Part shown: one piece after another, positions 1 through 55,629 of the stretch
Layout of the letters: every line of letters starts with the position of its first letter
How positions within the stretch are numbered: the first letter of the stretch is position 1
Sequence record: NZ_CP118109.1
Strand: one strand, 5' to 3'
DNA: 64,000 bases
Source of the DNA: a plasmid
The notes under the pieces: generated by a model
What the model was told of the DNA's origin: nothing
The model's database searches: none
The model's input: the letters and a program-made list of their open reading frames with translations, nothing else
Program-made: the position numbers and the translations under genes

Positions 1-3000
1 TCCAGGATCGTTAGGCTCTACTCTGAATCCGGAATCTGACTTATCAAACTCTGGATTTTCAACACCTGCCAATCTACGGATAAGACCAAGCCCAGCATTA
101 GAACTCCCACCTTCATCATTGATCGCATCAACGATGCCGCTAACACCAACACGCTCTACACTAACACCGGCGCTTGTGCCGAATTTCTTATATGGGCTGC
201 TTAATCCTCCATCTTGACCATGAATCTTTTGTAACTCTCGGATCGCGGCCTCATGTCCTGTTGATTGGCTTTCGCTATCAAGGAAGAACTGCCTGTCGAA
301 CTCATAGACCTTTTTCCAATCAGAGTCCGTTCTCGCGCGATACAAGGTATTAATAAAATCCATTGCGCTGTCTATCTCTTCCGCACCGTGCTTAGATGAA
401 ATCAGCTTCTGCTCTAAATCCTGACCGAAGTCATAGATTGCTTGCCGTGCAGCTTCATTATGACCAAGGTAAGTCTTAGCTTGCTGACGCATAGCGTAGT
501 TAAGGTTGGACGCATGACCGATAACCATCTTACCTGATTTCGCCGTAAGCTCGGAACGATCATTCGCCGCAAATTGAGTAAACTCGTCTTCGCTGCTTAG
601 ATTCGGAAGTTCAAAACTTCGAGCCCCTTCATCGCCAGAGAATTTATTGATCAGCTTATCCATTCTTTCTGTACGCTGTTGTTGCTGCTCATTGTAGATC
701 CTGCCCCACTCAGCTTGAATCTTTTCGTCGCTCAGTGCTACGATATTATCGTAGTCACCGTCTGAGTCGGCTTTCATTAGGGATGCCGTCAATGCGGTTA
801 CGTGAAACTCTCCTGGTTTTATATTCTCGTCCATCATGAGTCGAGTGATCTGCATTGCATTATCATGGAACGTAGGGTAGCGAACATTCATTGTATAGAA
901 GGGCTTATCTGGATCGCTCAATTTTTCATAAATCCCCATCTTCTTTGCATCTTCTGGAGAGATGTATGTTCTCTCGCCATCCATAGCATCCGAAGTCCTT
1001 GGGTCGATCAGTTTAAAGATACCGGTACCGGACTCATTCATATTGGTTTTGAATACGCTGCTGTACGTCTGACCTTTAGAAGAAGTTACGTCTTTAACCA
1101 GTTGATTAACGTAGCCATCAATGGATCTTTGCAGGGATTCATGAGCTTCTACAGCTTCCTTGTAATTTGTAACCCCATCGTTCTTGCCGATCCTTGCAGC
1201 ACGCTCATAGATTTTGGCGATATTCTTTTGAAGCTCTCTGAAATGGATATCTCCGCCTTTTCCTTCTTGAGCTGTAAACGGAATAAAGATCTTATCTATG
1301 GCCTTCCTTCTTTCAGAGTCGGCGCCTCTTCCCACAACTTTGTCAACGTAGGTATATTCCAAATCACCAACCTTCGGGAGCTCTAACCAATAACCTTCTC
1401 CGTTCATCCCTTCTCCAAGCATTTGGGATACATGGGATCGATCAAATATGGTTCCCATAAGCGAATGCTCATTCTTGCCATACTTGCTGGTAGGAAGGTT
1501 TTTGAAATCATTAACAGACAGCGTAGGACCTTCAACGGACTCCGGATTTGCAATAGCTCCAAGGGCTGTTATCATATTTCTGGATTCCTGGGCACGATAG
1601 TTTGCTTGATTTGTCTCGAGCATCCGATTATACATGTGCTCTTTTGTAGCTTCCGCACCCATGTTGTCCAGAACTCCGTACTCACGATGTCCCCATGTAA
1701 CACCTTTTATGGCGTTTTCTCCACCTGCATAGATTGGATCGTCACCTCTAAACTCGATAACAACTCTACCTGTCTTATCAGTCATTCGAGAATAATTCTC
1801 CACTTGCGAAGCCCTAACTTCCTGAATCGCAGTCGTTAAGCCTGTGCTAGTCTTGTTATTCAAATTAATATCTGGGTGAGCGAAGAGCTGATCAAATGCG
1901 TCTGTTTTGATGCCCGCATTTGAATTAACTAGGAAACGATCCTCATTCCAGTTTAATCCGATGCCAGATTCCTCGACAGCTCTGATTGCGCGTTGCTGCT
2001 GCTCGGGAGACATCCCTTGAATATGATCAGCCAGTAGTTTGGCTTGACCTGTCATCATGGCTCCAAAGTCTTTATGCTTTCCTACATCAGGATTGTAGAT
2101 GGCTGTGATGTCATCTGATCCTGTAAGATATCTCATTAGCTCTCTTGAGACTGTAGTGTCAGTTGTTTTTTCTCCTTCAATCATGAATTTGAACGGCTGA
2201 TCTTCAGTATGAATCCCGATTCTGTTCTCATCATAATCCGTGAAAATGGTTCCTGTTTTATTTCCGTCATAGAATACTTTCTCTTCAACGCCAGACACCG
2301 TTCTTACTCCGAGCAGATCCCCTGGATTTACCGTTGTCCTTAGATGCCCATCTTCGTAGAAGGCACTATTCCAAGTAAAGGAGTCACCCTTGTCGATAAA
2401 GGTGTGATTATCTACTTTATAAGCATCCATGATTTCTTTAGTAAAGATAGCCTGCTGTTCGTACAATCTAGCTTTTGCCATGGAGTCAGATAGCTGTTTT
2501 TTAATACTCTGACTTACACTACTATCGGCAAGAAGCTGCTGAACACGATCGTCGAGCTGAGCCTGTGACATGTAGGCGACTTTCATATTAACGCCGCGCT
2601 GTGCAGGATTGGCTTTATTTCGCTCTTCCATAGCTGCCGTTGTAACAAGACTATCGAAGTATGAAGGCTTTATTCCGGCTTCAAGAAGCCCCTGCCTAGT
2701 CTTCTCATTAACGTTGTAGCTGTTGAACCACTGGACAGCATTATCACGACCGTTAAAGCTGTACGCACCAAGTGGATGATAATCCTGAATGTTCTTGAAA
2801 GACCATATTCCTCTGGAAACATTTTCGGATTTAACGCTGCCAGCATAAAGATTCAGTTCTTTGCTTGCCGCCCAATCATCAACTTCCTTAATCATTTCAT
2901 AAGCTTTGTTAGGAGAGAGATCATCAAAAGTTGCATGCCGTATATTGCTGCCACGCTGTAGGGCTCTTCCTAGCCAATCTTCCCGTATATCTCTATCAAG

Positions 3001-6000
3001 GTTTATGCGCCCCTGCTCATGCCATTCCTGAATCATAGCCGGAGCTATGCTTACGTGAGATTGCTTTAGGAAGTCAGAGTCATTGTTTGCCCAGTAATAT
3101 CCATCGTTTTGAGATAAAACATTTCGCTTGATTCCAGACAAGGTTTCGATCTCATTTCGCAAAGCCCTCTTGCTCATTAAGTCCGCTTCCTCATACTCAT
3201 CGTTCCTAATGGCATTTAAGATATTGCGCATTTCAAAGGAGTCCGTATATCCTCTAGCGATCATTTCCGCAGAAGAAATAGTTTTAGTATCTCCCCCTTC
3301 GTTGACTAGAAAAGATCGAGCGTTGAGTACTTGGTTTCCGATAACATGTGTTCCATTCTGTTGAATCAGCGGAACGATGATTTCGGATGCTTTGCTGTGC
3401 GACTCACCTGCAAGGAATTTCTCCATGACACTCGCACTGTTTTCACTCTTAAAGATCTGAATCCGCGCTTGAGTTCCTTCTTCATTCACCGAAAGATTGT
3501 ATTGAAGCCCATGCATCCCCATTTTGTCAGCAGTCGTTCTGTATGTTTCCAGAATGTGATTAACAGCCGAAGAGTTGTTGCTTCTCAATCCGGATGCATG
3601 TTCTACACCATCAAGCCGTGAAAAGATATCAACCGCACTTTCATCCATTTTTACCCGCTGATTAGCAATCCCTTGCTGTAAAATAAAGCCTTGAACTCCG
3701 TTAGTCTTCTTGATAGCAGACTGAATCATTTGCTGGTTAACAGCTTCGCTCACTTGCTGCATTTCAGCTCTGCGCCCTACGGATTTAATTTTAAGATTCT
3801 GCTGCATGATATCATGGTTGTCCATCAAGTCTTGAACCATCATACTGATGCTGTCATTAATGGCGAAGCTTCGATTAAATTCGTGGAACTTGTTTGCCAC
3901 TTTCCTATTGATTACGTTGCTCTCTTGAAGTGAAGTAATCAGGTTCCCGAGCCGTTCTTTCCTGAGATCAACGCCGTCATCCGGACTTCCGATCTGACGA
4001 TAAATTGCGTTGCGGGCAGTGGCCATCGTTTCGAAGTTTAGATATCTCTGCTCTTTTCTGGCAGTGCTTCGATCGAAATAGTGTATGCCTCTTTGCTCAA
4101 ATGGCTGTGTTGGGCGTTCAGTTGTATCTCCTCCAATTGTGCCATTCACTTCTTGATTGTAGAGCCTCCAGGCAATATCACGCTGCTGCCTAGTCCGTCT
4201 TGCTTCCATATCGCTCATATCTGGATTGATCGGAAATTGTTCTTCGATAGCTTCAATCGCTTTACTGTAATGAGGAAGCTCATCTACAAGTCGTGGCGCC
4301 ATTCGGAAGAATAGGCGCTGCTCTGTCTCGTTTAACCTACCTCCTGGTAAGCTATTGAAATTCATGCGCTCCATCATCTCTTCATGAGTGATTCGGTTAT
4401 CCATCAAACGTTTGCGAGCTTCTTCAGGATCGTCTTCAATGTGATCTATCACATTTTGGATATGTCCACCCTTTCCTTCTAAGCGCTCACGGTAAACTGC
4501 AGCGTTACTATACATACGCTTGGCTGCTTCAAAGCCTCGAGTGGTTGAGTTTCCACCAGCACCCGAAAGAGAGGTTAGGCTTTCATATCTTCGTCTGGCC
4601 AAGTCTCTTTCTTTCTGGATGCGAATTTCCCGCTGCATGTCTTTTGAAAGACCGTTCCAGTAATAGAATTTTTGCTGGACAAAATTTTCGATTTGCTGAA
4701 TTGCATCATCACCTTCACGAATGATGAATGAATTTGCCTTTGTATCTGGATTGTATAAATCCAGCGCTAATCGATTTGTCTTTAAAGTTCCATCCTCATT
4801 ATAGTCTGAGATATTTCGTAAACCCTGTACCTCGTAGAAAGACTTGCTGTTGACAGCCATACGATTAAAATCCGGTTCATCTGCTACAAACGATCCGTCT
4901 TCTGATCTTGCTTGAAAATCAAACTCCCCATTCCCGTAAGCCATTGCTCCGCCAATTGAAAATAGGCGATCTCCTTTTCTAAGCTGCCGATCACTCCAGC
5001 TTAACTGTGTAGGATGATAATTGAATCCAAAGGTGTCGATCCCAGGAAGTGATTTTGCATCCTCAATTGTTTGACTGACACCATTAAACATTCTGGAGAA
5101 AACTCCACCCAAGCCCTCTTCACCAATATCATGCGCCGCATTATGGGCCGCACCCTGATCAAAGCCAAAAGTTCTGCGCAGCTCCTGCAGCGTACCTAGA
5201 CCTCCCATTGCCGGTTTAGATTCGAATGATCTGCCAAAGCTTGTGTGCAGTCCCTTCATATTTGGATAAGATGATTGGATAACTCTCAAGAAGTCGATAT
5301 GCTTCTTCGGCCCCAAAATAGGCTCACCTATCTTTTTACTCCATTGCTCCAATGCTGGTATATCAAAATTAGTACCATTGTGAGATAAGAAGTACTTGTA
5401 GCGATTATCATGAAGGAATTTGTTATAGCGATTAATAACCCCCAGATGATCCTTTTCTCCATTCGCCTGCAGATCATTAAACCCTTGATTAATATGACGA
5501 AGATAAAATTCAAAATTCTGAATAAACTTCAAATCATCAATTGTTCCATCTGTGCGTAGAATCTGATTCACGACTTGGTTATGGCTGATATTTGTTACTC
5601 CTCGGTTTGTTTGCAGGATAGCACCTGAAACGCCGCCTTCGTTTGAGGTAGAGTAACGCATTAAGTCGATGACCGAACGCTGCTCAGAAGAGGTTAATTT
5701 CCGGAAGCTGTATGGATCTGTTTTGATCTTTTTTATCAGGCCTTTCATTTCTGTTGCTGACTTATTATCTAGGGCAAGCAGTGCATTAAATACACTCTTT
5801 GAACTAGCTTTATAGGTGCCACCTGCCTGTCTGCTAAAGCTTTGCGCTGCAATCTCAGTCACCCCGAATCCTGATCCATCGTTTTTAGATCGATCTCCCA
5901 TGGTCTCAATATCGAAAGCAACATAGGAATTGTGTCTACTGCTTGGATTCTTAGCCCTTTGGACGAACTCTTGGAATACATCAATGGCGCTTCTTGCCTG

Positions 6001-6246
6001 ATTATTGTTAGCTGTGTAAAGCTCAGGCATGACTTTGTAGCGTCCTTGTCCAATGATTGATTTTGCTGACAGCTGTGAATTATTAATCTTCTCCACCAGC
6101 TCGTTTACTTTCCCTTGTCGGCTATCTCTTTTTGCGTAATTTGGACTTGTAACAGGATTAAATGCGGTAACTGGCACCCAGGTTCCGCGGCTGTTTGGAG
6201 CAACCGCTTGGAACCCTTCTGCCATTAGAATTTCCTCAATCCCCAT
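1..6246 (-). CDS. Giant ORF (>=2082 aa, runs off window edge; start ATG 6246..6244 with RBS AAGGAAGTGAG). N-terminal DnaQ-like DEDDh 3'-5' exonuclease domain. C-terminal region has a beta-prime-like double-psi beta-barrel with RYPTFH and ADSDGDYD motifs: candidate virion-type single-chain two-barrel RNA polymerase
   Basis: Manually translated in frame over the whole 6.2 kb with no stops. Exo I AFDIETMG (~5896-5919), Exo II SHNGTNFDIPAL (~5362-5382), Exo III HNAAHD (5128-5145). RYPTFH at 865-882 and DSDGD at 754-768. The ~150 aa around the barrel align with the 51360..54992 protein (FKLIDP../FMVQDP.., RYPTFH/RNPAIA, ADSDGDY/ADNDGDE, IGHASNLNYAMRQQAKTY/IGQLTNIATRLADAVRKV). Confidence 0.6.
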   Translation of the reverse strand, partial: MGIEEILMAEGFQAVAPNSRGTWVPVTAFNPVTSPNYAKRDSRQGKVNELVEKINNSQLSAKSIIGQGRYKVMPELYTANNNQARSAIDVFQEFVQRAKNPSSRHNSYVAFDIETMGDRSKNDGSGFGVTEIAAQSFSRQAGGTYKASSKSVFNALLALDNKSATEMKGLIKKIKTDPYSFRKLTSSEQRSVIDLMRYSTSNEGGVSGAILQTNRGVTNISHNQVVNQILRTDGTIDDLKFIQNFEFYLRHINQGFNDLQANGEKDHLGVINRYNKFLHDNRYKYFLSHNGTNFDIPALEQWSKKIGEPILGPKKHIDFLRVIQSSYPNMKGLHTSFGRSFESKPAMGGLGTLQELRRTFGFDQGAAHNAAHDIGEEGLGGVFSRMFNGVSQTIEDAKSLPGIDTFGFNYHPTQLSWSDRQLRKGDRLFSIGGAMAYGNGEFDFQARSEDGSFVADEPDFNRMAVNSKSFYEVQGLRNISDYNEDGTLKTNRLALDLYNPDTKANSFIIREGDDAIQQIENFVQQKFYYWNGLSKDMQREIRIQKERDLARRRYESLTSLSGAGGNSTTRGFEAAKRMYSNAAVYRERLEGKGGHIQNVIDHIEDDPEEARKRLMDNRITHEEMMERMNFNSLPGGRLNETEQRLFFRMAPRLVDELPHYSKAIEAIEEQFPINPDMSDMEARRTRQQRDIAWRLYNQEVNGTIGGDTTERPTQPFEQRGIHYFDRSTARKEQRYLNFETMATARNAIYRQIGSPDDGVDLRKERLGNLITSLQESNVINRKVANKFHEFNRSFAINDSISMMVQDLMDNHDIMQQNLKIKSVGRRAEMQQVSEAVNQQMIQSAIKKTNGVQGFILQQGIANQRVKMDESAVDIFSRLDGVEHASGLRSNNSSAVNHILETYRTTADKMGMHGLQYNLSVNEEGTQARIQIFKSENSASVMEKFLAGESHSKASEIIVPLIQQNGTHVIGNQVLNARSFLVNEGGDTKTISSAEMIARGYTDSFEMRNILNAIRNDEYEEADLMSKRALRNEIETLSGIKRNVLSQNDGYYWANNDSDFLKQSHVSIAPAMIQEWHEQGRINLDRDIREDWLGRALQRGSNIRHATFDDLSPNKAYEMIKEVDDWAASKELNLYAGSVKSENVSRGIWSFKNIQDYHPLGAYSFNGRDNAVQWFNSYNVNEKTRQGLLEAGIKPSYFDSLVTTAAMEERNKANPAQRGVNMKVAYMSQAQLDDRVQQLLADSSVSQSIKKQLSDSMAKARLYEQQAIFTKEIMDAYKVDNHTFIDKGDSFTWNSAFYEDGHLRTTVNPGDLLGVRTVSGVEEKVFYDGNKTGTIFTDYDENRIGIHTEDQPFKFMIEGEKTTDTTVSRELMRYLTGSDDITAIYNPDVGKHKDFGAMMTGQAKLLADHIQGMSPEQQQRAIRAVEESGIGLNWNEDRFLVNSNAGIKTDAFDQLFAHPDINLNNKTSTGLTTAIQEVRASQVENYSRMTDKTGRVVIEFRGDDPIYAGGENAIKGVTWGHREYGVLDNMGAEATKEHMYNRMLETNQANYRAQESRNMITALGAIANPESVEGPTLSVNDFKNLPTSKYGKNEHSLMGTIFDRSHVSQMLGEGMNGEGYWLELPKVGDLEYTYVDKVVGRGADSERRKAIDKIFIPFTAQEGKGGDIHFRELQKNIAKIYERAARIGKNDGVTNYKEAVEAHESLQRSIDGYVNQLVKDVTSSKGQTYSSVFKTNMNESGTGIFKLIDPRTSDAMDGERTYISPEDAKKMGIYEKLSDPDKPFYTMNVRYPTFHDNAMQITRLMMDENIKPGEFHVTALTASLMKADSDGDYDNIVALSDEKIQAEWGRIYNEQQQQRTERMDKLINKFSGDEGARSFELPNLSSEDEFTQFAANDRSELTAKSGKMVIGHASNLNYAMRQQAKTYLGHNEAARQAIYDFGQDLEQKLISSKHGAEEIDSAMDFINTLYRARTDSDWKKVYEFDRQFFLDSESQSTGHEAAIRELQKIHGQDGGLSSPYKKFGTSAGVSVERVGVSGIVDAINDEGGSSNAGLGLIRRLAGVENPEFDKSDSGFRVEPNDPG

Positions 6247-33400: not shown

Positions 33401-34627
33401 TTATTTATGAAGCAGGATACGAACCGCACCGATCGAACCTTTGAAGTCCCAACCTGTTGGGATACCAGGGATTTGACCTGTTGCTTTGTACGTTGCCGTT
33501 ACATTTTTAGGAGTAGCGCCAGCAGTGTTATCAACCGTTACAACAACCAAGCCAAGCTCAGCATTTACGTAATCAGGTTCAATAACTTGTCCATCGAATT
33601 TAACTTCGACAGTTCCGGCTACAGCTGGAAGGTGTTCCAAGCGGAAATCATGACGACCTTTTTGTCCCGGCTGAATTGTACCGATAACTTCATCTTCGTA
33701 TGGCACTTCGATATTGGAACCGTTTGTTAGGCCAGGAATACCTTGTGGCTTGTACTGTCCTTTATCCCAGTTCGCATAAGTTTTTTCGTAAGGGTAGCCA
33801 GGGAAGCCATCTTGAGCACCAATATCTTCTGGACGGAATCCAGAGTTATTAATGTGCTTGTCATCAGAGCGTTGATCTTCTTGGCTCCATCCAACCCATT
33901 TCAACCAGCCTTGTGGAGGCATGTTCGTTTCAACGGACCAGATTTGACCGATAGTTTGATCGCGCATGATACTTTCTTGTTCCATCAAGGCTTTCAATTC
34001 ATCAAGAGTAGTCGCTGCCTTGATTTGCTCACGAATTTGATCAAAGTCGGCTACGATTAGACGTCCGTTTTCATCAGACATTACAAAGTCGCCGTTTTTC
34101 GCAGGACGAGATGGATTCGCATCGTAGAAAGAACCCCAATGGATTTCTTCTGCGTCTGCTTTCACTGGAATGTATGGAAGCTCAATGTAGATTGTATTTT
34201 CAATTGTCGGCTGCATGCCGTTGAAACCATCTACAAATTCTTCATACAAGTTACCGTAAGCTACGCCAATTGCTTTATTGGCTGCACGAGTGTAAGTGGA
34301 GCCGTCTGTTTTATGAACGTCCGTTACATCCTTACCGCCGTTAGCTAGTGTAAGAACTGGAAGCAATGTGCCGCTGTCGAAATCTTTAATTACGCCGTCT
34401 TGTCTTTCGTTAAAGTTATCGGTTGCCGCAGCAACTGCGCGACCTTTAGGAATTACAACCCAGCCATCGCCACCGAAATGATACCGGAATAGACGTTTTA
34501 GACGAGGGTCAATTGCAAATTTCTCGCCGGGACTGTCATGAGTACCTGCTTGAAGCTTGGTATTTGTACGATTGTACTGATCTGGTGTGTCTCTAAGAGG
34601 ACCTGTATTGCCAGAGAATAATGCCAT
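33401..34627 (-). CDS. 408-aa head protein candidate (capsid or vertex/decoration)
   Basis: ORF between the scaffold-like and capsid candidates. Confidence 0.4.
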   Translation of the reverse strand: MALFSGNTGPLRDTPDQYNRTNTKLQAGTHDSPGEKFAIDPRLKRLFRYHFGGDGWVVIPKGRAVAAATDNFNERQDGVIKDFDSGTLLPVLTLANGGKDVTDVHKTDGSTYTRAANKAIGVAYGNLYEEFVDGFNGMQPTIENTIYIELPYIPVKADAEEIHWGSFYDANPSRPAKNGDFVMSDENGRLIVADFDQIREQIKAATTLDELKALMEQESIMRDQTIGQIWSVETNMPPQGWLKWVGWSQEDQRSDDKHINNSGFRPEDIGAQDGFPGYPYEKTYANWDKGQYKPQGIPGLTNGSNIEVPYEDEVIGTIQPGQKGRHDFRLEHLPAVAGTVEVKFDGQVIEPDYVNAELGLVVVTVDNTAGATPKNVTATYKATGQIPGIPTGWDFKGSIGAVRILLHK

Positions 34628-44796: not shown

Positions 44797-44973
44797 TTAT
44801 TTTCCTTCGTTTTGCTCCGATTCAATAGCTTTCGATAATAATCGTCTGGCTTCTGTTGCCCAATCACCTGGCTTGATCTTATCGAAATGATCTTTAATAT
44901 CTGTATCGACATCACGAATGATGACTTGGACTTTCGGCACCTTCCGTGCTTTCGTCTCTCTTTCTTCAGCCAT
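44797..44973 (-). CDS. 58-aa small basic/acidic protein translationally coupled (TAATG) to the actin-like gene; candidate ParR/AlpR-type DNA-binding adaptor
   Basis: ATG overlaps the stop of the upstream gene; MAEERETKARKVPKVQVIIRDVDTDIKDHFDKIKPGDWATEARRLLSKAIESEQNEGK; below the 60-aa cutoff of the ORF track. Confidence 0.5.
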   Translation of the reverse strand: MAEERETKARKVPKVQVIIRDVDTDIKDHFDKIKPGDWATEARRLLSKAIESEQNEGK

Positions 44974-46166
44974 TACGCTGCCTCGCTTTCGAATATATCT
45001 TTGATGAATCTTTCATAAACCTGCTCAAAGTTCAGACTGCCATCTTCCTGTTCCTTGACTTGGTTCATTGCCGCACGAATATAGAATCCATATACGTTCG
45101 CCATTTGCGGGTCGTCCACTACGGAGAAGGCTTGTACCTTACGCTTCGCAAACTCTTCTTTCAAGAAGTCTTGGAAGATATGTGCGCCCCCGCCTGAAAG
45201 CAAGATGATCTTCACACGGTTCGCATGCTGACCCCAAGACGTAATAACCTCATTTGCGATGACTGCAGAGATCTCCTTCGCGGCTTCTTCTACAAGATGA
45301 TACAGATTATGAGAAGCGCCATTGAACTCGATTTCTTCTCCACGAACGACTGAATCTAGTTCGTCATCCGTTGGGCTGTAAGCAACCCCAAACTCGTTAT
45401 CAAAGTGAATAGCCATACTCACTTTGAGTCGCTTGTACAGCTCAGCAGTCGCAAGTGTCGATCCATAAGTTCCCTCTTCCTCTACATATACGCCTTCGGA
45501 GAATAATGCATAATCTGTAGTGAGGTGCCCGATATCAACGATAGCAGTCAAAGCTCTGTAGAGCGTAGTCGTCAAAAGACCTTCTTTTGTGAAAGCGAAT
45601 TGTGTAGATGTTACACTTCCCTCTGGCTGTCTCAAGATTTCATATCCAATAACATTAATTTTCTTAGTGATTGTTTTTCCATAACCAAGGTAGATCACAA
45701 TTTCAAAACTTTGGTTTATGTACTCTTCCAACCGTGTGCGAATACCTTTATCGAAATCCTCATTCGGCAGACCAGTTGTTAAGTAGACATTATATTCTCC
45801 ATCTTCATGAGGAACACATAGTGCAAGATTGGTTTCAAACATAACTCTGAATGATGGATCGGATGCACGGTCATGATTGGTTGTCCGACTTGTAACCAGA
45901 AGCTTATTACTCTTCATTGCCTGTTCGCCTACATGATAGAAACCGTCAGTAGTCTTCACCATCAAGCGAGATTCATCGACTTCTGTGTGCTTAAAGGAAT
46001 TAGCGAACTTTTCATTTGTAGGCATGACAGTACTCGGTATGACACCGAACATGCCTAAGCTCGACATGCGCTTGCTTCCATTAAAACCAATATCAATTGC
46101 TGCAAGCTCAAAATCAAATAAGTCTTCTAGCTTTAACTTCAAATCTTTCACTTTTTTCACCGCCAT
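44973..46166 (-). CDS. 397-aa actin-like ATPase (ParM/Alp family)
   Basis: Actin-fold phosphate-1 LAAIDIGFNGSK, phosphate-2 IVDIGHLTTDYALF, adenosine motif ILLSGGGA; RBS GGAGG. Confidence 0.7.
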   Translation of the reverse strand: MAVKKVKDLKLKLEDLFDFELAAIDIGFNGSKRMSSLGMFGVIPSTVMPTNEKFANSFKHTEVDESRLMVKTTDGFYHVGEQAMKSNKLLVTSRTTNHDRASDPSFRVMFETNLALCVPHEDGEYNVYLTTGLPNEDFDKGIRTRLEEYINQSFEIVIYLGYGKTITKKINVIGYEILRQPEGSVTSTQFAFTKEGLLTTTLYRALTAIVDIGHLTTDYALFSEGVYVEEEGTYGSTLATAELYKRLKVSMAIHFDNEFGVAYSPTDDELDSVVRGEEIEFNGASHNLYHLVEEAAKEISAVIANEVITSWGQHANRVKIILLSGGGAHIFQDFLKEEFAKRKVQAFSVVDDPQMANVYGFYIRAAMNQVKEQEDGSLNFEQVYERFIKDIFESEAA

Positions 46167-48777: not shown

Positions 48778-49122
48778 CTAGGCCCCCGCCTTCCTCTTAG
48801 CCTTCATCTTTTGTTTCAAGCGGCAGGAATCACATGCCCTCTTTGTGCTGTTGTTCTCTTTCCCGCATATTGTGCATAGTCCATTTGCTAAACGATATGA
48901 TCGCTTCGCTCTGGCATAGTGCACAACGCATAGTCCTTTTGAGATGGGCTTCTTATGGCACCCTTCTTCGATACACTCCGTATGCTCGTACATCGGTCTC
49001 CCTGTTCCTGCTAACACAATGGTGGGATCGTTATGCCGCTTAATTCTTCTGTAATGCTTCCAGCAGTGCCCTTTTGCGATAACTTCTTTTCCACAACGAG
49101 GAAATTCGCATATGGCTTTCAT
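48778..49122 (-). CDS. 114-aa Cys-rich zinc-finger repeat protein
   Basis: Repeats of C..GC..(5-8)..GLC..HY.R (CEFPRCGKEVIAKGHCWKHYRR; CIEEGCHKKPISKGLCVVHYARAKR). Confidence 0.5.
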   Translation of the reverse strand: MKAICEFPRCGKEVIAKGHCWKHYRRIKRHNDPTIVLAGTGRPMYEHTECIEEGCHKKPISKGLCVVHYARAKRSYRLANGLCTICGKENNSTKRACDSCRLKQKMKAKRKAGA

Positions 49123-49322
49123 TTCATTACGTCTTCCTGCTGATAGACTATAGATTGTTGCGCTTCTCCCACCGTCTGCAAGCTATCTCCTTGAACATAG
49201 ACCGCATACGTATTTCGATCTATTGAATCCATCTCAATCCCAATGATTGAGATTCCCTCCTTAAGATGAAGCGCTTGCTCGAGCACTTCTTTCGTCACAA
49301 CAATCTTTCCTTGCTTTTTCAT
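49119..49322 (-). CDS. 67-aa hypothetical protein
   Basis: ORF coupled to its neighbours. Confidence 0.4.
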   Translation of the reverse strand: MKKQGKIVVTKEVLEQALHLKEGISIIGIEMDSIDRNTYAVYVQGDSLQTVGEAQQSIVYQQEDVMK

Positions 49323-49696
49323 TATTTGCTTGCCTCCAATTTATGTTCGTCTTCTTCTGCGCGCTTTTTAAGATAATGCCTCCTGCATAGCTTTCTTGCT
49401 AGAGCTGGTTTGCTGCACCCCTCTTCAATACATTCGCAATCGTTATTGGACTTGCCACCGATCATGTATTGATTACATCCCATTTCTTTTCTTCGATTCT
49501 TTGCATAGCAATTAGGGCAGAGGCCGAGCGCTTTCACTTTGTTAATACCACATGCTGAGCAAGACTTTGGTCTATCATAATCTTGCTTCTCGTATGTTGG
49601 GTCTCCGTATAGCCATTTCCTCCGATAGTGTTTTGCACAAAGCCCTGTTGATCTAACATGCTCGTTGCATCCTTCAATCGCGCATTCTTTTGACAT
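49322..49696 (-). CDS. 124-aa Cys-rich zinc-finger repeat protein (paralog of 48778..49122)
   Basis: Three CxxGC...GLCxxHYxR-type repeats. Confidence 0.5.
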   Translation of the reverse strand: MSKECAIEGCNEHVRSTGLCAKHYRRKWLYGDPTYEKQDYDRPKSCSACGINKVKALGLCPNCYAKNRRKEMGCNQYMIGGKSNNDCECIEEGCSKPALARKLCRRHYLKKRAEEDEHKLEASK

Positions 49697-50287: not shown

Positions 50288-50365
50288 ATTTTCTATACTC
50301 AAATTGTAATGCGTTACATTTTATTTGACAACAATTAAATTTTCTATAGGGGGCAATTTTCTATA
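50288..50365 (+). repeat. Three direct copies of ATTTTCTATA (50288, 50339, 50356) in the divergent control region
   Basis: Exact 10-mer repeats. Confidence 0.5.
50305..50318. promoter_or_regulatory. TGTAATGCGTTACA motif copy in the divergent control region
   Basis: 45 nt upstream of the minus gene start at 50260; followed on the plus strand by TTTTATTTGACA. Confidence 0.5.
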
Positions 50366-50389: not shown

Positions 50390-50450
50390 AGTTGTTTATT
50401 GTTGGCTGATGGTAGCGTTCGACGCCCCACCCCCTCAACAATAAGCAACC
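50390..50450. promoter_or_regulatory. Inverted pair AGTTGTTTATTGTTGG / TCAACAATAAGCAACC with a nested GTGGGG...CCCCAC dyad, ahead of the membrane-protein/polymerase operon
   Basis: Imperfect 16-bp inverted repeat with ~30-bp spacer. Confidence 0.4.
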
Positions 50451-50503: not shown

Positions 50504-50992
50504 ATGACTAACACATTATCAGCTATTGCTAACACTATGGGAGAGGACGCTGTTCTTAAGACTGCATCAGCTTTAGGTATTGCATGGAGAGTAACAAAGA
50601 ATGTAGCAGGCTTCGTATATAAGAACCTTATACATAAGCCTATTGTTAAGGCAGCTAATGTAATACGTAAGCATAAGTGGGAAACAGCTGCTACAGCAGC
50701 CTCTGCTGTAGTAGGTGGTGTAGCCACTACTAGCGTATGTGGTGCAGGGTTGATGGCTGCTGCTGTAGCTATGGTTGCTGTACTCACTATCCATTTCCTT
50801 ATTGCTAAGCGTAAGAAGCAGGCTATGGACTGGCGTAGAGCTATCTTATCAGCCATGGTATGCGGTCTTATAGCAGGGTTCCTGCCTGTAATATCTGTAT
50901 ACCTAACGATGTGGGCATGCATTGGTCTTGACTATGCATGGCTTGCATCTGCATATACGTATCTCTACACTGCTGCTTTGTTCGTGATCTAA
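50504..50992 (+). CDS. 162-aa predicted membrane protein (3 hydrophobic segments)
   Basis: RBS AAAGGAG 6 nt before ATG; strong NNT/NNA optimal-codon bias shared with the polymerase gene downstream. Confidence 0.55.
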   Translation: MTNTLSAIANTMGEDAVLKTASALGIAWRVTKNVAGFVYKNLIHKPIVKAANVIRKHKWETAATAASAVVGGVATTSVCGAGLMAAAVAMVAVLTIHFLIAKRKKQAMDWRRAILSAMVCGLIAGFLPVISVYLTMWACIGLDYAWLASAYTYLYTAALFVI

Positions 50993-51343
50993 TAGGTCAT
51001 GGACATGGCATGGTATAGATGCATAGGGAGTACACGATAACGGTGGATGATCCCCTATGTAGGCTATACCCTCTACCCTACCTTATATGGTGGCATGGGT
51101 GGCAGTACTATGGTTAGCCATATTGTGCCTATGTATATGGGCATATGGGTGTGTAGGTGCACTCTATCATATACAGCCCCTGTGTAGTACGCATGGTCCG
51201 GGTCAGCCGCCCCCATGTGTAGTATGCAGGGGTCTTTTTATTTATTTACACATAGCTCCCTGTATAGGTGCCCTATATAGACCCCCCTCTATATGGACCC
51301 CCCTATATAGGGAGCTGTATGTAAGTACAGCACATTTAACCCC
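50993..51343 (+). repeat. 350-bp ORF-free GC-rich array of about 10 degenerate CCC(C)TRTRTAGG-like words immediately upstream of the polymerase gene
   Basis: cccctatgtagg, ccttatatggtgg, cctatgtatatggg, cccctgtgtag, ccccatgtgtag, ccctgtatagg, ccctatatag, cccctctatatgg, cccctatataggg; T-run at ~51230. Confidence 0.5.
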
Positions 51344-51359
51344 AAGGAGGAATCACTCT

Positions 51360-54300
51360 ATGTCAACTGATTCAAAGAAAGCTATGTCGTCCGTCCCTAT
51401 GTCCAACAAACAAACTAAAACAAACAAAAAGGAGCAATCTACAATGACTAACAACAAACAAGCACAAATCAACAAGCAACTGGCTGAGGTAAACCGTCTT
51501 TTCAACAAAGCTATCAAAGGTAACAAACTAGAGGCGCAAATGTCTGATTACAAGTCTACTTCTGTAGTATTGGATGCTATTGCTGAGTTCCCAGGATTGG
51601 GCGTTAAAACAAAGAATTATGAGGCTATCACAGCTGCTATCGCTAGTGGTAAGGATATCCGTACTGTTATGGAGAACCCGGAGCTTACTGGTGTTCCTAA
51701 GAATCAATATCGCTTCTTCCGTGCATTCATGGAAGAGAAAGGTGCAGAGATTCCTGCTATGGTGATTGCACCTACTCGTAAGCGTGTACGTACTGTATCT
51801 GTCGATCTATTGAAACATTCCCGCAACGAAGCTGGTGAAGTGGTGCTCAACGCGGAAGTCAGCTATCAATCTCAGTCTCAGCTTGCTGATGCATTCGGTA
51901 AATTGGTTCCAGCTACAGATAGCAATGATCTACACTTGGATGCGACTCACATTGTCTATATCGATTTGAATATCGCTGATCAAGAGAATCAAGAAATGAA
52001 AGACTTGCAAATCGAGATCGTCCGTAATGGATTCTATTACACAGTGGAAGGCGTTACACGCAAAGCTAACTTCTTTATTCAGACAGCAAATCAAACTCGT
52101 CAATTGCAAGGTATCTATATTGCAGAGGACTTCATGACGATTCCTCAAGCATTCCGCAAGCTTGGTCATAGCTTCCTGTCTTATTGCAAACTGGATAAGG
52201 CTACTGGTGTCTATACACTGGATATCACGAAGTATCTGAAACGTCCAGGTCTGTCTGGTACAAGCTCTGTGCCATCTAAGGTAGTAACCTTCCCTAATGC
52301 TCATATCGACAAGCTGCCTAACATGAGAACAGGAGAATACTTGGTTAACTCTGATCGTCACTCTATGGCAGTGATTGATGATCGCTTTGCTAAGATCAAG
52401 AATGGTAAGTTCAAAGCATTCTATAACAACCGTGTAGTCACTGTATCTGCGGTTGATGGTACATTCACAGCTACATGGAAAGAAGGACGCATGACTAAAG
52501 AAGAAGTCCTGCCTATGAACTATCTGAAGCTTGGCGTAGGCGATGGCTTGGTTCTAGCTTCCGAGTCGATCTACTGGGCATTGAAGGCTGAGTTTGGCAA
52601 TGATTCCGATGCATGGCAAGTACGTATCACCCCATTCGTTAAAGGCTTGATGGTATTCGTGCCAGGCTTGCGTCAATACTATGATGCAGATATCGTTGCA
52701 TTCAAGTCTGCTGTGAAAGGTGACTTCCGTTTGCTTGCTGATAGCGAAGGTAAGATTGACTTTGGTATTGAGCTGCGTATTGCACGCTTTGCTAAGCGTC
52801 CTGCTATGAAGTCTGAGTATGTAGAGCTTCCATATCAGTTTGCACATGTATCCAGCATTACAGCAGAGCAAATGATTGATGTTGCTCAACCACGCCTGGA
52901 TGAAGCTAAGAGTGTACTTACTAATCCTGCACTGATTCAAAAGTATGCAGGGGTTGCTCACTTGGAGAAGCTGAACAAGCTGACTCTTGCACAAGCTGAG
53001 TTTCTACGTGATCGCTCCCTTGTTTCTGTATTTGCTAACTTCATGCACTATGCTCCATTCACATTCCAAGATGCTTACATGCAAACAAGAGCACTGAGAC
53101 TGATGGGGCAGCAAGTAGACAAATGGGTTGCTGGTACGATTCCTGTAGAAGGCGAGTATCGCTTCATGGTTCAAGATCCATATGCATTGCTTCAAGCTGT
53201 GGAAGATGAGAATGGAGATATGATTGTCCCTGATCACGTTGGTCTTAAGCCACACCAAACATTCATGACAGCACGCGATAACCAACACTTTGTAGAGGGC
53301 CCTGTTGCATCCTTCCGTAACCCTGCTATTGCTAAAGGTGAAGGACGTATCTTGAATGGTGTAGCTCCACAAAACTATGTGACTGCTTCTGCTAAAGGCG
53401 CATTCAACTCTGTATGTGTAATGAGCTGCCATGACTTGGATACATTCGCTGAAGGCGGAGCTGATAACGATGGTGATGAAACATTCATTACACAAGTACG
53501 TGCTATCGTTAATGGCATCATGGGTAAAGATGGTCAATCTAAGTTCTTGGCTATGCTTGACCTGCATGTAGATAAAGATGGTGAGTGGTCTTCTGGATGC
53601 CCGTTCCCTATGGAATCTGATGAGAAGCTTGCATTTGATGCTCCTTGCGTATCACACGATGGACAATTCAAAGTGAAGTTCACTGCCGATCAATATAATG
53701 ATGCATTCATTCAAGCTGTACATGAGCTAAGCAAAGAGTATGTCATTCGTACACTGACTCCTAACAAGATCGGTCAACTGACTAACATTGCTACTCGTCT
53801 TGCTGATGCTGTACGTAAAGTAGGATATATGTATGCAGAGAATACCAATGAGTTTGGTCAAAAGACTGAACGTTCAGATGCTGAGAAACAAGAGCTGATT
53901 AGAGAGATCGCTCGTATGGAAGATATGATCGACTTGATTCGTCTGGCTCAAGGATGGGAGATTGACCGTGCTAAGCATGGTGGTGCATATGAGGAAGCAT
54001 TGGCTGCTGAATTGGAGTTCATCAACAATCCTCCAAGATATGCAGGATTCCAAGAGTCACCTAAATCCAAGCGTCAATGGATCAAGCAAGCATGGCTCGC
54101 ACATCACAAAGGTGCTGAGGGTGGAGTAGACACAGGTTCTGTAATGTCCCGTGTGCATAACCACATGAAAGCATTCGTACAAGAGAATGTAATCGACAAG
54201 TCCGAAGAGATCATGAACGATGTAGAGAACAACAACCTGATTCATATCCTGAGAGCTGAGTATGTTATTGATCCAGTTATCTATGACAGAATCGCTAACT

Positions 54301-54992
54301 CTATTCGTTCCATTCGCTCTATCTATACAAACGACATCAAGAACGCTCGTCAGAAGCATGAAGAGTTCATCAAGCTTGCTGAGCTGAAATATGGTGAGGC
54401 TGATCCTGCACTGGCGATGGCTAAAGAGAAGATCGAGCGTATCTATAGAGATGATTGCGATGCGATCACCTATAAGAGTCAAATGACACTTGGCGCTTTG
54501 GAGTTCTCTTTCTCTGCGACTGATATCGGCTATGTTGCATACATGGTGACATACACTGAGAGAGGTCAAGATAACAATCGTTCGATCAGCTTCCCTTGGG
54601 TCGTGGCTAAGAAGCAATTCTTGGAGCTGTGTGCTGCTATCTCTAATCGTGAGATTGTGAAGAACCCTTATGTTGTCCCTGCATCTGATATCAAGGCAAA
54701 CTTCCGTATTGGGGCTGATTCAACTGGTCGTGTGTTTGATGGAGAGAGAATGGCACCTGTCATTGCGAATGCAGGTATGGTAACAGTGGAGTATATGTAT
54801 AACGAAGTTACTGAAAGCTACATGTATGTTGTTTATGTTCCAGTAGGCAGCAGAAATGTATATGTAGGCGACTTCTACCAAGATCAAGTTGGATTCTTGA
54901 CTGGTGCAACACGTTTCAATCTTACAGTGTCCAATGCTGAAGCTAAAGGCAGAACTATGAGTCTGACGATCTCCAGCATCGAACGCATGTAA
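51360..54992 (+). CDS. 1210-aa single-chain two-barrel (YonO/RDR/crAss gp66-like) RNA polymerase candidate
   Basis: Beta-prime DPBB signature VASFRNPAIAKGEGRIL ... GGADNDGDETF (compare NRAPTLHRLG ... NADFDGDQM); RBS AAGGAGG 9 nt upstream of ATG 51360 (alternative ATG 51444 also has an RBS); the track N-terminal extension from 51087 translates a repeat array and is rejected. Confidence 0.65.
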   Translation: MSTDSKKAMSSVPMSNKQTKTNKKEQSTMTNNKQAQINKQLAEVNRLFNKAIKGNKLEAQMSDYKSTSVVLDAIAEFPGLGVKTKNYEAITAAIASGKDIRTVMENPELTGVPKNQYRFFRAFMEEKGAEIPAMVIAPTRKRVRTVSVDLLKHSRNEAGEVVLNAEVSYQSQSQLADAFGKLVPATDSNDLHLDATHIVYIDLNIADQENQEMKDLQIEIVRNGFYYTVEGVTRKANFFIQTANQTRQLQGIYIAEDFMTIPQAFRKLGHSFLSYCKLDKATGVYTLDITKYLKRPGLSGTSSVPSKVVTFPNAHIDKLPNMRTGEYLVNSDRHSMAVIDDRFAKIKNGKFKAFYNNRVVTVSAVDGTFTATWKEGRMTKEEVLPMNYLKLGVGDGLVLASESIYWALKAEFGNDSDAWQVRITPFVKGLMVFVPGLRQYYDADIVAFKSAVKGDFRLLADSEGKIDFGIELRIARFAKRPAMKSEYVELPYQFAHVSSITAEQMIDVAQPRLDEAKSVLTNPALIQKYAGVAHLEKLNKLTLAQAEFLRDRSLVSVFANFMHYAPFTFQDAYMQTRALRLMGQQVDKWVAGTIPVEGEYRFMVQDPYALLQAVEDENGDMIVPDHVGLKPHQTFMTARDNQHFVEGPVASFRNPAIAKGEGRILNGVAPQNYVTASAKGAFNSVCVMSCHDLDTFAEGGADNDGDETFITQVRAIVNGIMGKDGQSKFLAMLDLHVDKDGEWSSGCPFPMESDEKLAFDAPCVSHDGQFKVKFTADQYNDAFIQAVHELSKEYVIRTLTPNKIGQLTNIATRLADAVRKVGYMYAENTNEFGQKTERSDAEKQELIREIARMEDMIDLIRLAQGWEIDRAKHGGAYEEALAAELEFINNPPRYAGFQESPKSKRQWIKQAWLAHHKGAEGGVDTGSVMSRVHNHMKAFVQENVIDKSEEIMNDVENNNLIHILRAEYVIDPVIYDRIANSIRSIRSIYTNDIKNARQKHEEFIKLAELKYGEADPALAMAKEKIERIYRDDCDAITYKSQMTLGALEFSFSATDIGYVAYMVTYTERGQDNNRSISFPWVVAKKQFLELCAAISNREIVKNPYVVPASDIKANFRIGADSTGRVFDGERMAPVIANAGMVTVEYMYNEVTESYMYVVYVPVGSRNVYVGDFYQDQVGFLTGATRFNLTVSNAEAKGRTMSLTISSIERM

Positions 54993-55629
54993 TAGGCGAG
55001 CCACCTATATCTGTAGTCGGCATGTTCCTAGGCATGTCGGCTACTCCTTTATTATAGCACACCCTTCGGGTAGGTGCTAACGCCATCGACAGCTCCACGC
55101 TTCCACCCTAAGACGCCCTGCCCTTTGCAGATGACGAATCATACTACTTGTAGGATGCTTTCGTTAGACGCGAAGGCAGGATGCTTATATGGGACATGCA
55201 TGGACGGCAACTTACGGCAATACAGCTAGACAGCTGAATCATATGAATATAACGTCCGGTGGGGGAGGAAGCTGCTTCGCAACGTGGACGCTGATCTATA
55301 TGAGCAAGCTCTTTCCCTATGTTGTCGATGGCTGTTATCACCTATCCGAATCGTGTGTAATCTCAAGTGTGACGCTACTTTATGTACGATGACTTATATC
55401 ACAGAGAGCTACATCCTGCTGTATATCATACTTCGGATGCTATATTCCCTATTTCGTATATCATATGCTACTGAAAGTGGTGAACCCTCATCCGAAAATT
55501 TTCTTCATCCTGCGTATGATTATCTTATGTGCTCTATAGTGTATGACGATGTAATAGATAGTGCAGACGATGGTCGCTAACGCTCCTGTGGCATTGTGAA
55601 TGTTTAACTTGAACGAGGAGGTTATCTAT
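54993..55629 (+). other. 637-bp apparently non-coding spacer downstream of the polymerase gene, with related word composition (cacctatatctgtag, cttatatggg), a GGCATGT/GTCGGC duplicated segment and a small ACCC-TTC-GGGT hairpin
   Basis: No ORF with a credible RBS or codon usage; composition unlike neighbouring coding DNA. Confidence 0.4.

Follow-up and report, generated by a model that had tools for sequence, protein, structure and literature searches.

A predicted single-chain two-barrel RNA polymerase of the RDR/YonO kind on a Paenibacillus jumbo phage or phage-plasmid

The locus, its codon usage, and its flanks

The window analysed here, the whole 64,000-nt stretch of DNA, is part of a Paenibacillus urinalis "plasmid" of ~215 kb; as a full myovirus structural module is present on it, this element is taken to be a jumbo phage or phage-plasmid. 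The phage origin is established by window genes for terminase, portal, protease, and sheath, together with the Paenibacillus source of the element. At the head of a rightward array of small genes, adjoining a divergent junction with the virion module, lies a real open reading frame of 1210 aa, preceded by a ribosome-binding site, for which an RNA polymerase function had been proposed (hereafter the original prediction); its synteny is kept in every relative examined. Given that an in-frame extension back to 51087 is unconserved and crosses hairpins, the start is placed at 51360. The features of the gene and its upstream neighbor are as follows, gp99 being the counterpart in Bacillus jumbo phage 0305phi8-36:

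50504..50992, + strand: hydrophobic membrane-protein gene, 162 aa, codon-biased, preceding the polymerase gene in every relative examined
51346..51352, + strand: ribosome-binding site AAGGAGG, 7 nt before the ATG (direct sequence reading)
51360..54992, + strand: predicted single-chain two-barrel RNA polymerase gene, 1210 aa, RDR/QDE-1/YonO family, counterpart of gp99
52533..52667, + strand: first (beta-like) barrel motifs GVGDGLV (D395) and AWQVRITPFVKGLMVFVPG (R422, K428), invariant in 13 homologs
53313..53354, + strand: FRNPAIAKGEGRIL (aa 652-665), the R-x-P motif (R653, P655) of the second (beta'-like) barrel
53454..53486, + strand: GGADNDGDETF (aa 699-709), predicted metal-binding aspartate triad D702/D704/D706
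53949..53984, + strand: C-terminal conserved motif QGWEIDRAKHGG, common to gp99
54582..54599, + strand: C-terminal motif SISFPW, common to gp99, with FPW also in plant RDR2

The array that follows comprises dozens of ORFs of 50-150 aa, an arrangement typical of early or host-takeover regions. The 162-aa membrane protein matched no Pfam or PHROG family.

The exceptional codon usage that had been ascribed to both genes is real. The polymerase gene has an Nc of 41.4, as against 50-59 for most long window genes and 55.6±1.1 (minimum 51.5 in 1000 resamplings) for the same protein encoded with the window's pooled codon usage, and the membrane-protein gene is likewise biased (Nc 37); among the window genes tested, the polymerase gene shows the strongest codon bias. 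AGG, CGA, CGG, TTA, ATA, and CCC are absent from it, the bias is uniform along its length, and four diverged orthologs have kept it (Nc 40.6-47.2 vs 44-61 for all but one neighbor gene). Since the genes nearest to it in codon preference are those of putative major virion proteins, the bias looks expression-linked.

The non-coding flanks of the polymerase gene (367 nt upstream and 607 nt downstream) hold a series of folded or conserved elements:

51177..51247, + strand: 20-bp hairpin followed by a U-rich run, intrinsic-terminator-like, closing the membrane-protein gene (fold of the flank: z = -4.85)
51243..51327, + strand: long inverted repeat with an inner palindrome and CCCTATATAGG-like motifs, directly before the ribosome-binding site
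55013..55054, + strand: 14-bp hairpin with a T-rich tail, terminator-like, 21 nt past the stop codon
55055..55571, + strand: GC-rich, strongly folding non-coding spacer, with blocks conserved in the relative L001
55572..55586, + strand: conserved 15-mer GGTCGCTAACGCTCC, 45 nt before the first small-gene start codon

The description of these flanks as GC-rich and repeat-dense was overstated, as they consist mainly of terminator-like and other hairpins. Their GC content (46-51% vs 43-44% in the surroundings) is only 3-7 points above background, and the downstream flank folds strongly (z = -5.1) while containing few repeats. On the upstream side, two long hairpins supply most of the repeats with their arms, and a cluster of CCCTATATAGG-like motifs is present besides (seven of the 12 window matches fall inside 262 nt, and 12 matches were reached in none of 100 shuffles).

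The terminator-like stem at 51177..51247 retains its pairing in L001, whose polymerase is 80% identical, through four one-sided changes and one two-sided change (C-G to U-A). The inverted repeat (26-nt arms, 85% complementary) differs in its stem by only two substitutions from L001 and L010, to both of which the segment 51168-51332, spanning the terminator-like hairpin and the repeat, is 89% identical; it could serve as a regulatory or promoter region, or as a stabilising leader. Terminator-like hairpins thus flank the gene on both sides, and the one at 55013..55054 would make it a monocistronic unit, which matches the view of Hardies et al., for whom the monocistronic transcript of gp99 lends itself to rapid expression (PMC2147016).

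Within the downstream spacer, where no Rfam family was matched, lies a CCTTCGGG hairpin motif that recurs in the relatives L006 and L008. Exact copies of GGTCGCTAACGCTCC occur twice in L001, twice in L006, and further on the L010 contig (polymerases 45-80% identical), all on the + strand and 40-60 nt before start codons, which makes this 15-mer a candidate phage-specific promoter or regulatory site. A scan for the sigma-70 consensus found it less often than in shuffled sequence, and not at all on the + strand upstream of the polymerase gene; no promoter for the gene, or used by its product, was identified. The terminators on both sides, conserved hairpin leader, extreme codon bias, and downstream 15-mer, putative as their roles are, provide an unusually clear and directly testable regulatory anatomy.

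Fold and family membership

Both barrel motifs singled out by the original prediction are real. FRNPAIAKGEGRIL precedes GGADNDGDETF by 33 aa (49 aa from R653 to D702), and R653, N654, P655, E661, D702, D704, G705, and D706 are invariant in 13 homologs of 31-80% identity. The former aligns with 'KNPCLHPGD' of RDR2, 'MRAPLTYRSEH' of YonO (phage SPβ), and 'FRSPLIHKSE' of gp99, and the latter with 'GGDLDGD', 'GSDFDYD', and 'GGADTDGD', respectively; a DxDxD triad preceded by R-x-P in the beta'-like barrel is the motif of the two-barrel superfamily. The first-barrel motifs align with 'WCIRQ-NFIKGML' of YonO and 'AFQIRF-GFTKGLLL' of gp99. The beta-like barrel of QDE-1 contains an invariant Asp plus two basic residues, D709, R738, and K743 (PMC2919709), of which D395, R422, and K428 are, on the basis of that report and of spacing (27 and 6 residues vs 29 and 5 in QDE-1), the proposed equivalents; a direct search of the PDB with the first-barrel sub-profile gave no match and no residue-level alignment to QDE-1.

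The AlphaFold model of the 1210-aa protein (pLDDT 84.4, pTM 0.76) has the two-barrel superfamily fold, its best structural matches being QDE-1 and RDR2 (Foldseek E 1e-21 to 1e-13, probability 1.00). Full-length QDE-1 was matched with an E of 7e-21 and a target-normalised TM of 0.54, and maize and Arabidopsis RDR2 with E of 1e-19 to 1e-13. These PF05183 enzymes also have the DxDGD signature and the C-terminal Y..TY...FPW motif in common with the candidate, whereas they are only 11-13% identical to it in sequence, are eukaryotic and RNA-templated (both templates in the case of QDE-1), and are dimeric or coupled to Pol IV. The beta-prime likeness that had been proposed does not extend beyond the catalytic motif: the best match to Rpb1/beta' has an E of 0.015 and a probability of 0.10 (TM 0.06-0.08), and cellular RNA polymerases in general were matched only at E > 0.01, so that the protein is not assigned to the cellular-type multisubunit beta' family.

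The protein itself falls below threshold against Pfam, PHROGs, and PDB sequences, with no match to PF05183 at E <= 1 and the gathering threshold not reached. Nevertheless, the full-length homologs P0006, P0009, and P0011 (32-46% identity) pass PF05183 with 34-54 bits against a cut-off of 23.8, and a search with the family profile through a library of 1.84 billion proteins recovers members of PF05183 at E ~1e-21 to 1e-24, so membership is assigned by profile and transitivity, not by direct score. About 40 cluster representatives in that library match the protein end to end; it thereby defines a well-populated sub-family conserved over its full length.

Among phage proteins, the comparisons with gp99 and YonO extend across both barrels. 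Against gp99 (ABS83659.1; annotated 'hypothetical DNA-directed RNA polymerase; similar to Pfam05183'), hhalign gives a probability of 99.2% (E 3e-19, 680 aligned columns). The lengths are similar (1218 vs 1210 aa), the motifs AFQIRF-GFTKGLLL, FRSPLIHKSE, GGADTDGD, QGWSIDFAKTG, and SISFPW (gp99 forms) recur, both hosts are jumbo myoviruses with related tail sheaths, and in both genomes the gene, predicted to be monocistronic, is followed by a small-ORF array. Identity is, however, only about 23%, and gp99 was missed by tblastn; the candidate's lineage is therefore separate from that of gp99 and deeply diverged.

An ortholog of YonO from an SPβ-like phage is matched with an hhalign probability of 86% (E 5e-6) over both barrels, with a weak 22% identity over the aligned part. 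YonO is likewise a single-chain two-barrel enzyme of a Bacillales phage with a DxDxD triad and R-x-P, but it has some 300 aa fewer (924 aa in the annotation of the ortholog) and DFDYD in place of DxDGD, is followed by an HU-like gene, and serves the late genes of a temperate siphovirus. The Foldseek search that matched QDE-1 placed neither gp96/gp64 of phage P23-45 nor gp66 of phi14:2, which is crAss-like, among the best 50 matches.

The assignment of the gene product to single-chain two-barrel RNA polymerases of the RDR/YonO kind, as originally predicted, is supported by the model, by the hhalign comparisons, and by the PF05183 profile. Its probable clade is that of the eukaryotic RNAi polymerases QDE-1 and RDR2 and the phage enzymes YonO and gp99, within which the gene is a new representative of a family already annotated in 2007. 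That family was first described in 0305phi8-36 (PMC2147016) and was noted again in 2010 and 2021 (PMC2919709, PMC7824862).

As the nearest solved structures are of RNA-dependent enzymes (dual-template in the case of QDE-1), template preference is unreadable from homology. The protein might accordingly be a true RNA-dependent, or a dual DNA/RNA-dependent, polymerase that copies phage or host transcripts into dsRNA or antisense RNA, for example for regulation or for countering host defences, and not a phage transcriptase. Its closest solved structures and its Pfam family are RNA-dependent polymerases of RNAi, QDE-1 is active on both DNA and RNA templates (PMC9508822), and its clade is nearer to PF05183 than is YonO, whose ortholog has no Pfam match. 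We nonetheless consider this improbable: gene position and codon bias fit a transcriptase that is needed in quantity, and YonO, the sole characterised bacterial or phage member, strongly prefers DNA templates; it is, by experiment, a strict DNA-dependent RNA polymerase that requires its aspartate triad (PMC5467207).

A probable phage transcriptase and its possible targets

Cellular RNA polymerases have no smaller known relatives than the YonO-type enzymes, of which, to our knowledge, YonO is the only one to have been studied biochemically. As the sub-family described here is nearer than YonO to the eukaryotic RNAi polymerases, it could link phage transcriptases with the RDR/QDE-1 enzymes. The best explanation of the locus, to which we assign a probability of about 0.68, is a single-polypeptide two-barrel polymerase of the QDE-1/RDR2/YonO/gp99 clade that acts as a phage transcriptase. 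Such an enzyme would be made fast and in quantity, soon after genome activation, from its own monocistronic, translation-optimised transcript. It would function as a non-virion, sigma-independent, DNA-dependent RNA polymerase, with the catalytic Mg2+ bound by D702/D704/D706 and the incoming NTP contacted by the first barrel's basic residues. Without recourse to the host RNA polymerase, the enzyme would then transcribe a set of genes specific to the phage, which could be the small-gene array downstream of it, with motifs such as GGTCGCTAACGCTCC perhaps as start sites, and/or later virion genes. As to the original prediction that no sigma-like partner is visible, a scan of 20 window ORFs gave no sigma-like Pfam domain.

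Timing is the point at which another reading competes. The gene may encode a YonO-like late-gene polymerase, or may be expressed in a plasmid-like carrier state, in which case its adjacency to the small array would be coincidental and its codon bias would reflect steady high expression instead of speed after infection. The element was indeed deposited as a P. urinalis plasmid and encodes an Alp7A-like segregation actin, pBtic235 is one example of a related jumbo prophage-plasmid (PMC9700832), and YonO, which is essential for its phage, is switched on when the prophage is induced and has the late, not the early, genes of SPβ as its specific targets of transcription (PMC5467207). This reading is doubtful, however, in that the gene always stands at the start of a small-ORF array of the sort typical of early or host-takeover regions, an arrangement that gp99 also shows. 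The label 'early' for the transcriptase, like that of 'structural' for the giant ORF discussed below, derives from gene position only.

The proposed non-virion status, in turn, is drawn by analogy from gp99 only, which bears no virion mark in a GenBank record that flags the virion proteins found by mass spectrometry. By the same token, gp99 would be absent at DNA entry, which counts against a main function in transcription-driven pull-in of the genome. A role in injection was raised for gp99 by Hardies et al., who judged transcription-driven entry too slow at such a genome size (PMC2147016), and a replicative role in RNA priming might be entertained given that two-barrel enzymes include the DNA polymerase PolD; 0305phi8-36, however, encodes separate primases, and we regard entry or replication as a highly improbable principal function.

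A second polymerase-like module in the giant ORF

The original prediction also held the polymerase gene to be paralogous to a giant ORF at the other end of the window, the features of which are as follows:

1..6246, - strand: the first 2082 aa of an unannotated giant protein of 2259 aa, encoded where the tail-gene block ends
nt 5128-5916, - strand: N-terminal DEDDh exonuclease-like domain
2158-2196, - strand: motif PFKFMIEGEKTTD of the C-terminal two-barrel RNA polymerase-like module
850-885, - strand: motif VRYPTFHDNAMQ of the polymerase-like module
748-774, - strand: motif KADSDGDYD of the polymerase-like module

Both RNA polymerase barrels are present in the model built for residues 1183-2082, so that a protein of the structural block does carry a two-barrel catalytic module, as do the virion-packaged crAss gp66 and P23-45 gp96. 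Paralogy was not borne out: no sequence similarity to the candidate was detected by BLASTP (E = 0.84), hhalign gave probabilities of 0.2% (profile-sequence) and 0.4% (profile-profile), and the giant-ORF model matches beta'/Rpb1, beta/Rpb2, and QDE-1 about equally, whereas the candidate favors QDE-1/RDR2.

Nor is the phiKZ-like virion/non-virion pair in single-polypeptide form, which the original prediction put forward, novel, since Thermus phage P23-45 provides a precedent (PMC10770324). Its gp96 (virion) and gp64 (non-virion) are similar proteins regarded as products of duplication, in contrast to the pair here, and the text consulted mentions no counterpart of the exonuclease-like domain for gp96, gp64, or phi14:2 gp66. 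No exonuclease fused to a virion RNA polymerase was found in the literature consulted, and tblastn of the giant protein matched none of the phage records searched, 0305phi8-36 included. The giant exonuclease-polymerase fusion is, for its part, a more novel lead than the 1210-aa gene.

Phages that bring their own transcription machinery include N4, phiKZ, crAss-like phages, and P23-45, a group that the fusion would extend to Bacillales jumbo phage-plasmids. We tentatively envisage, at well below even odds, that in this lineage of ~190-230 kb Bacillales jumbo phages or phage-plasmids transcription is shared by two unrelated-looking single-chain two-barrel polymerases: the giant protein, delivered with the DNA, would act on the earliest genes, the codon-optimised polymerase gene possibly among them, and would be succeeded by the gp99-like enzyme, starting from conserved motifs such as GGTCGCTAACGCTCC. 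The giant protein and the candidate's family occur on the same contig in seven of nine viral contigs.

The polymerase candidate and its relatives

The plus-strand frame is open from 51087 to 54992 in the window ORF scan, and an ATG at 51360, with AAGGAGG 7 nt upstream, yields a protein of 1210 aa. This start fits the lengths of the homologs (1161-1281 aa) and an alignment that begins at M1, while the 273-nt in-frame extension 5' of 51360 is read as non-coding, since it passes through hairpins and the nearest relative has different sequence in its place. The original prediction, which placed a polymerase gene with two barrel motifs at 51360-54992, holds for the gene and both motifs:

Amino acids 652-665 of the candidate: FRNPAIAKGEGRIL
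Amino acids 699-709 of the candidate: GGADNDGDETF

The motifs stand in the order claimed, with 33 residues between them. Residues R653, N654, P655, E661, D702, D704, G705 and D706 are invariant in 13 homologs (31-80% identity), as are D395, R422 and K428 in an upstream block, GVGDGLV ... AWQVRITPFVKGLMVFVPG. To place the latter three residues on the RNAi polymerases QDE-1 and RDR2, the PDB was queried with a first-barrel sub-profile of 92 positions; the sole match was MinD (E 0.26).

Searched as a single sequence, the candidate gave only sub-threshold noise in Pfam, nothing in PHROGs and a lone keratin coiled-coil among PDB sequences (E 0.23), and megablast against phages and PLSDB plasmids matched nothing. 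A tblastn search of phages reached Enterocloster phages only (21-26% identity over 20% of the candidate); because it missed both gp99, a hypothetical DNA-directed RNA polymerase of Bacillus phage 0305phi8-36, and the SPβ enzyme YonO, profiles were needed. A large protein collection supplied 14 relatives, and several full-length ones (32-46% identity) score above the threshold of the Pfam family PF05183 ("RdRP"). With the family profile, Arabidopsis RDR2 ranks first among PDB sequences, and the alignment pairs RNPAI.KGE...GGADNDGD with KNPCLHPGD...GGDLDGD and extends to a C-terminal Y.VTY...SFPW. The AlphaFold model of residues 41-1210 is confident (pLDDT 84.4, pTM 0.76), and all 19 significant Foldseek matches to it are QDE-1 or RDR2 (E 7e-21 to 5e-13), with cellular RNA polymerase large subunits appearing only at E > 0.01. 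Profile-profile comparison matched a YonO ortholog from an SPβ-like phage (probability 86%, E 5e-6, 425 columns including both barrels) and gp99, the closest annotated relative (probability 99.2%, E 3e-19, 680 columns). Finally, a profile search of 1.84 billion cluster representatives returned 316 relatives at E <= 1e-3, approximately 40 of which match end to end, and strong PF05183 proteins occur among these whole-library matches at E ~1e-21 to 1e-24. Taken together, the profile, the model, the gp99 and YonO comparisons and the library search place the candidate in the RDR/QDE-1/YonO two-barrel clade, as had been proposed, and a two-barrel fold of the RDR/YonO type is close to certain.

Codon usage and structured flanks

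The unusual codon usage noted for the polymerase gene and its upstream neighbor is borne out. The effective number of codons (Nc) of the polymerase gene is 41.4, as compared with 50-59 for most long genes of the window and ~44.5 for two putative major head-protein genes; when the protein was redrawn 1000 times from the pooled codon usage of the window, Nc was 55.6±1.1 and never fell below 51.5. The bias is uniform over the gene, from which AGG, CGA, CGG, TTA, ATA and CCC are absent. As its GC content (43.7%) equals that of neighboring genes, the bias reflects codon choice and not foreign composition. The nearest codon preferences are those of 32284-33369, 33401-34627, 14922-15644 and the tail sheath gene; given that these are expected to encode high-copy virion proteins, the bias points toward high expression, and it is stronger in the candidate than in the putative high-copy virion protein genes, "optimal" codons being judged here by the major virion protein genes of the phage itself. 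Orthologs in four diverged relatives likewise rank at or near the top of their own loci in codon bias (Nc 40.6-47.2).

Both spacers around the gene are strongly folded relative to shuffled sequence (upstream z = -4.85; downstream z = -5.1). The elements recognized within them are as follows:

51177-51247, plus strand: 20-bp hairpin with a U-run, terminator-like, for the preceding gene
51243-51327, plus strand: long inverted repeat directly 5' of the polymerase ribosome-binding site
Beginning 21 nt after the polymerase stop codon, plus strand: 14-bp hairpin with a T-rich tail, terminator-like
55055-55571, plus strand: structured, GC-rich non-coding spacer of ~520 nt, 3' of the polymerase gene
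55572-55586, plus strand: 15-mer GGTCGCTAACGCTCC, with exact copies in relatives

The flanks had been described as GC-rich and repeat-dense; the GC excess amounts to only a few points over the window mean of 43% (47.7% in the 367-nt upstream spacer; 46.1% in the 607-nt downstream spacer, whose first 200-300 nt reach 50-51%). In most relatives, the 400 nt 3' of the polymerase gene are 5-10 points richer in GC than the gene itself. With terminator-like hairpins on both sides, the polymerase gene looks like a self-contained transcription unit. Pairing in the 51177-51247 hairpin is kept in the related contig L001, whose polymerase is 80% identical, despite four one-sided changes and one two-sided change. 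The conserved 51243-51327 repeat, in whose stem the window differs from L001 and another related contig, L010, by just two substitutions, holds most of the local cluster of CCCTATATAGG-like motifs, and its inner palindrome is composed of such units; it could serve as an operator, an unusual promoter or a stabilizing leader. Rfam searches of the flanks gave no family and only a sub-threshold mir-506 match, which merely reflects the hairpin at 51246-51324. Scanning for sigma-70 promoters yielded fewer sites than shuffled sequence did, with none on the plus strand 5' of either codon-biased gene, and AATTTTCTATA showed no enrichment within the window.

The 55055-55571 spacer has no Rfam family, contains blocks 92-95% identical to L001 and shares its CCTTCGGG hairpin motif with two further related contigs (L006 and L008); it may be an undescribed non-coding RNA. 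Exact copies of GGTCGCTAACGCTCC occur in L001 (14274, 17648), L006 (12234, 13883) and L010 (7205), whose polymerases are just 45-80% identical, always on the plus strand and 40-60 nt 5' of small-gene start codons. An IMG/VR scan yielded 67 stretches, nearly all of them single matches on unrelated contigs, about as many as chance would probably give for 15 nt in so large a collection. Of these, only the copies on L010 are informative. The 15-mer may act as a promoter or regulatory site specific to the phage, and possibly as a target signal of the polymerase, and is offered as a lead rather than a result.

Phage setting and the giant protein

The minus strand of the window carries a myovirus structural module (large terminase, portal, protease, head proteins and sheath), whose sheath has distant relatives in 0305phi8-36 and Moorella phage MTATph1. 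A divergent junction lies near 50300, beyond which a plus-strand block encodes a hydrophobic protein, the polymerase and then dozens of ORFs of 50-150 aa. Outside the polymerase gene, the following are of note:

6259-12132, minus strand: ORF of 1957 aa, with the tail genes on one side and the giant polymerase-like ORF on the other
44973-46166, minus strand: Alp7A/ParM-like actin gene (Pfam ALP_N, E 1e-24)
50504-50992, plus strand: hydrophobic 162-aa protein with no family match, strongly biased (Nc 37)

The order actin, junction, hydrophobic protein, polymerase, long spacer and small genes is kept in every relative examined (190-230 kb contigs from metagenomes, Virgibacillus and Oceanobacillus), with the actin gene at the same relative position and a counterpart of the 162-aa protein just 5' of the polymerase gene. 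The 50504-50992 gene has its own structured leader, an inverted repeat at 50391-50449. The actin is consistent with a phage genome that segregates like a plasmid, or with phage DNA being positioned inside the cell. As had been noted, no sigma-like partner is visible: a sigma-like domain was found in none of the 20 window ORFs scanned.

Several other genes of the window merit mention. Two small cysteine-rich proteins, 48778-49122(-) and 49322-49696(-), contain repeated zinc-ribbon-like units (C..C...GLC..HY.R), the latter alone with a weak Pfam Zf_WRKY19 match, and could be DNA-binding regulators beside the divergent junction. The adjacent ORFs 14372-14857(-) and 14922-15644(-) match phrog_9206 ("major head protein"; E 1e-48 to 1e-58), and 13605-14372(-) does so weakly (E 3e-6). 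The three follow the sheath gene immediately and probably encode paralogous tail-tube-like proteins; the PHROG label looks doubtful. The 6259-12132 ORF matched nothing in PHROG, Pfam or PDB sequence searches and, judged by position, could encode a tape-measure or ejection protein.

The giant ORF at 1-6246(-) encodes 2082 of the 2259 residues of a protein that is 100% identical to PUW25_25260 of a 214.8 kb Paenibacillus urinalis "plasmid". This protein and the structural module indicate that the element is a jumbo phage kept as an episome, a lifestyle shared by the Bacillus thuringiensis jumbo prophage pBtic235 (PMC9700832). The giant protein has no Pfam, PHROG or phage-database match, and its homologs, named sources of which are the Bacillales B. 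subtilis, B. atrophaeus, B. velezensis, B. licheniformis, Alicyclobacillus and Oceanobacillus, are confined to contigs no longer than ~230 kb. Its recognizable parts are:

5128-5916, minus strand: DEDDh exonuclease motifs, N-terminus
748-885 and 2158-2196, minus strand: two-barrel RNA polymerase-like module, C-terminus

The motifs VRYPTFHDNAMQ...KADSDGDYD and PFKFMIEGEKTTD are invariant in 18 homologs, and the former pattern is close to the bacterial beta' motif, R-x-P-T-x-H ... ADFDGD. The original prediction had made the giant protein a paralog of the candidate; this was rejected at the sequence level, as neither BLASTP nor hhalign, the latter run both profile-sequence and profile-profile, shows any similarity. 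Nevertheless, the polymerase-like motifs make the proposed picture of two single-chain barrel polymerases in one phage plausible, and the two families share a contig in seven of nine viral contigs, ~45-50 kb apart. A dual-polymerase program that includes an exonuclease-fused virion enzyme would be a further reading, less likely than not.

Proposed role and known systems

The candidate would be a non-virion, sigma-independent DNA-dependent RNA polymerase, produced quickly and abundantly, that would then transcribe a phage-specific gene set; we place the probability that it acts as such a phage transcriptase at roughly two in three. The rival of an RNA-templated role is to be weighed beside YonO, which experiments have established as a strict, processive DNA-dependent RNA polymerase with an essential aspartate triad (PMC5467207). 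YonO is also needed by the phage and specifically transcribes SPβ late genes (PMC5467207); late or carrier-state expression, instead of early, is a second rival reading. For gp99, a DNA-directed RNA polymerase with a monocistronic transcript suited to rapid expression was proposed in 2007, and its gene adjoins a host-takeover-like region (PMC2147016). A third rival would assign the candidate to DNA entry or priming; gp99 is absent from the 0305phi8-36 proteins annotated as virion components. The transcriptase remains the preferred reading. Overall, the original prediction is largely borne out in what it observed and finds partial support in how it interpreted this.

YonO- or RDR-like polymerases have been described in Firmicutes phages, including 0305phi8-36, in 2007, 2010 and 2021 (PMC2147016, PMC2919709, PMC7824862). 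In P23-45, a virion and a non-virion polymerase, each a single-polypeptide two-barrel enzyme, form an established pair (PMC10770324), and crAss-like phages are known to package giant polymerases in their virions. What is new here is the size and coherence of the candidate's sub-family, the conserved codon bias and structured flanks of its gene, and its constant association with an unannotated, predicted giant exonuclease-polymerase fusion. Lastly, Bacillus phage BUCT082 and Enterocloster phage PMBT24 differ from the window's arrangement in carrying an HU/histone-like gene one to two small genes after the YonO-like polymerase, a pairing that may represent a conserved partnership.
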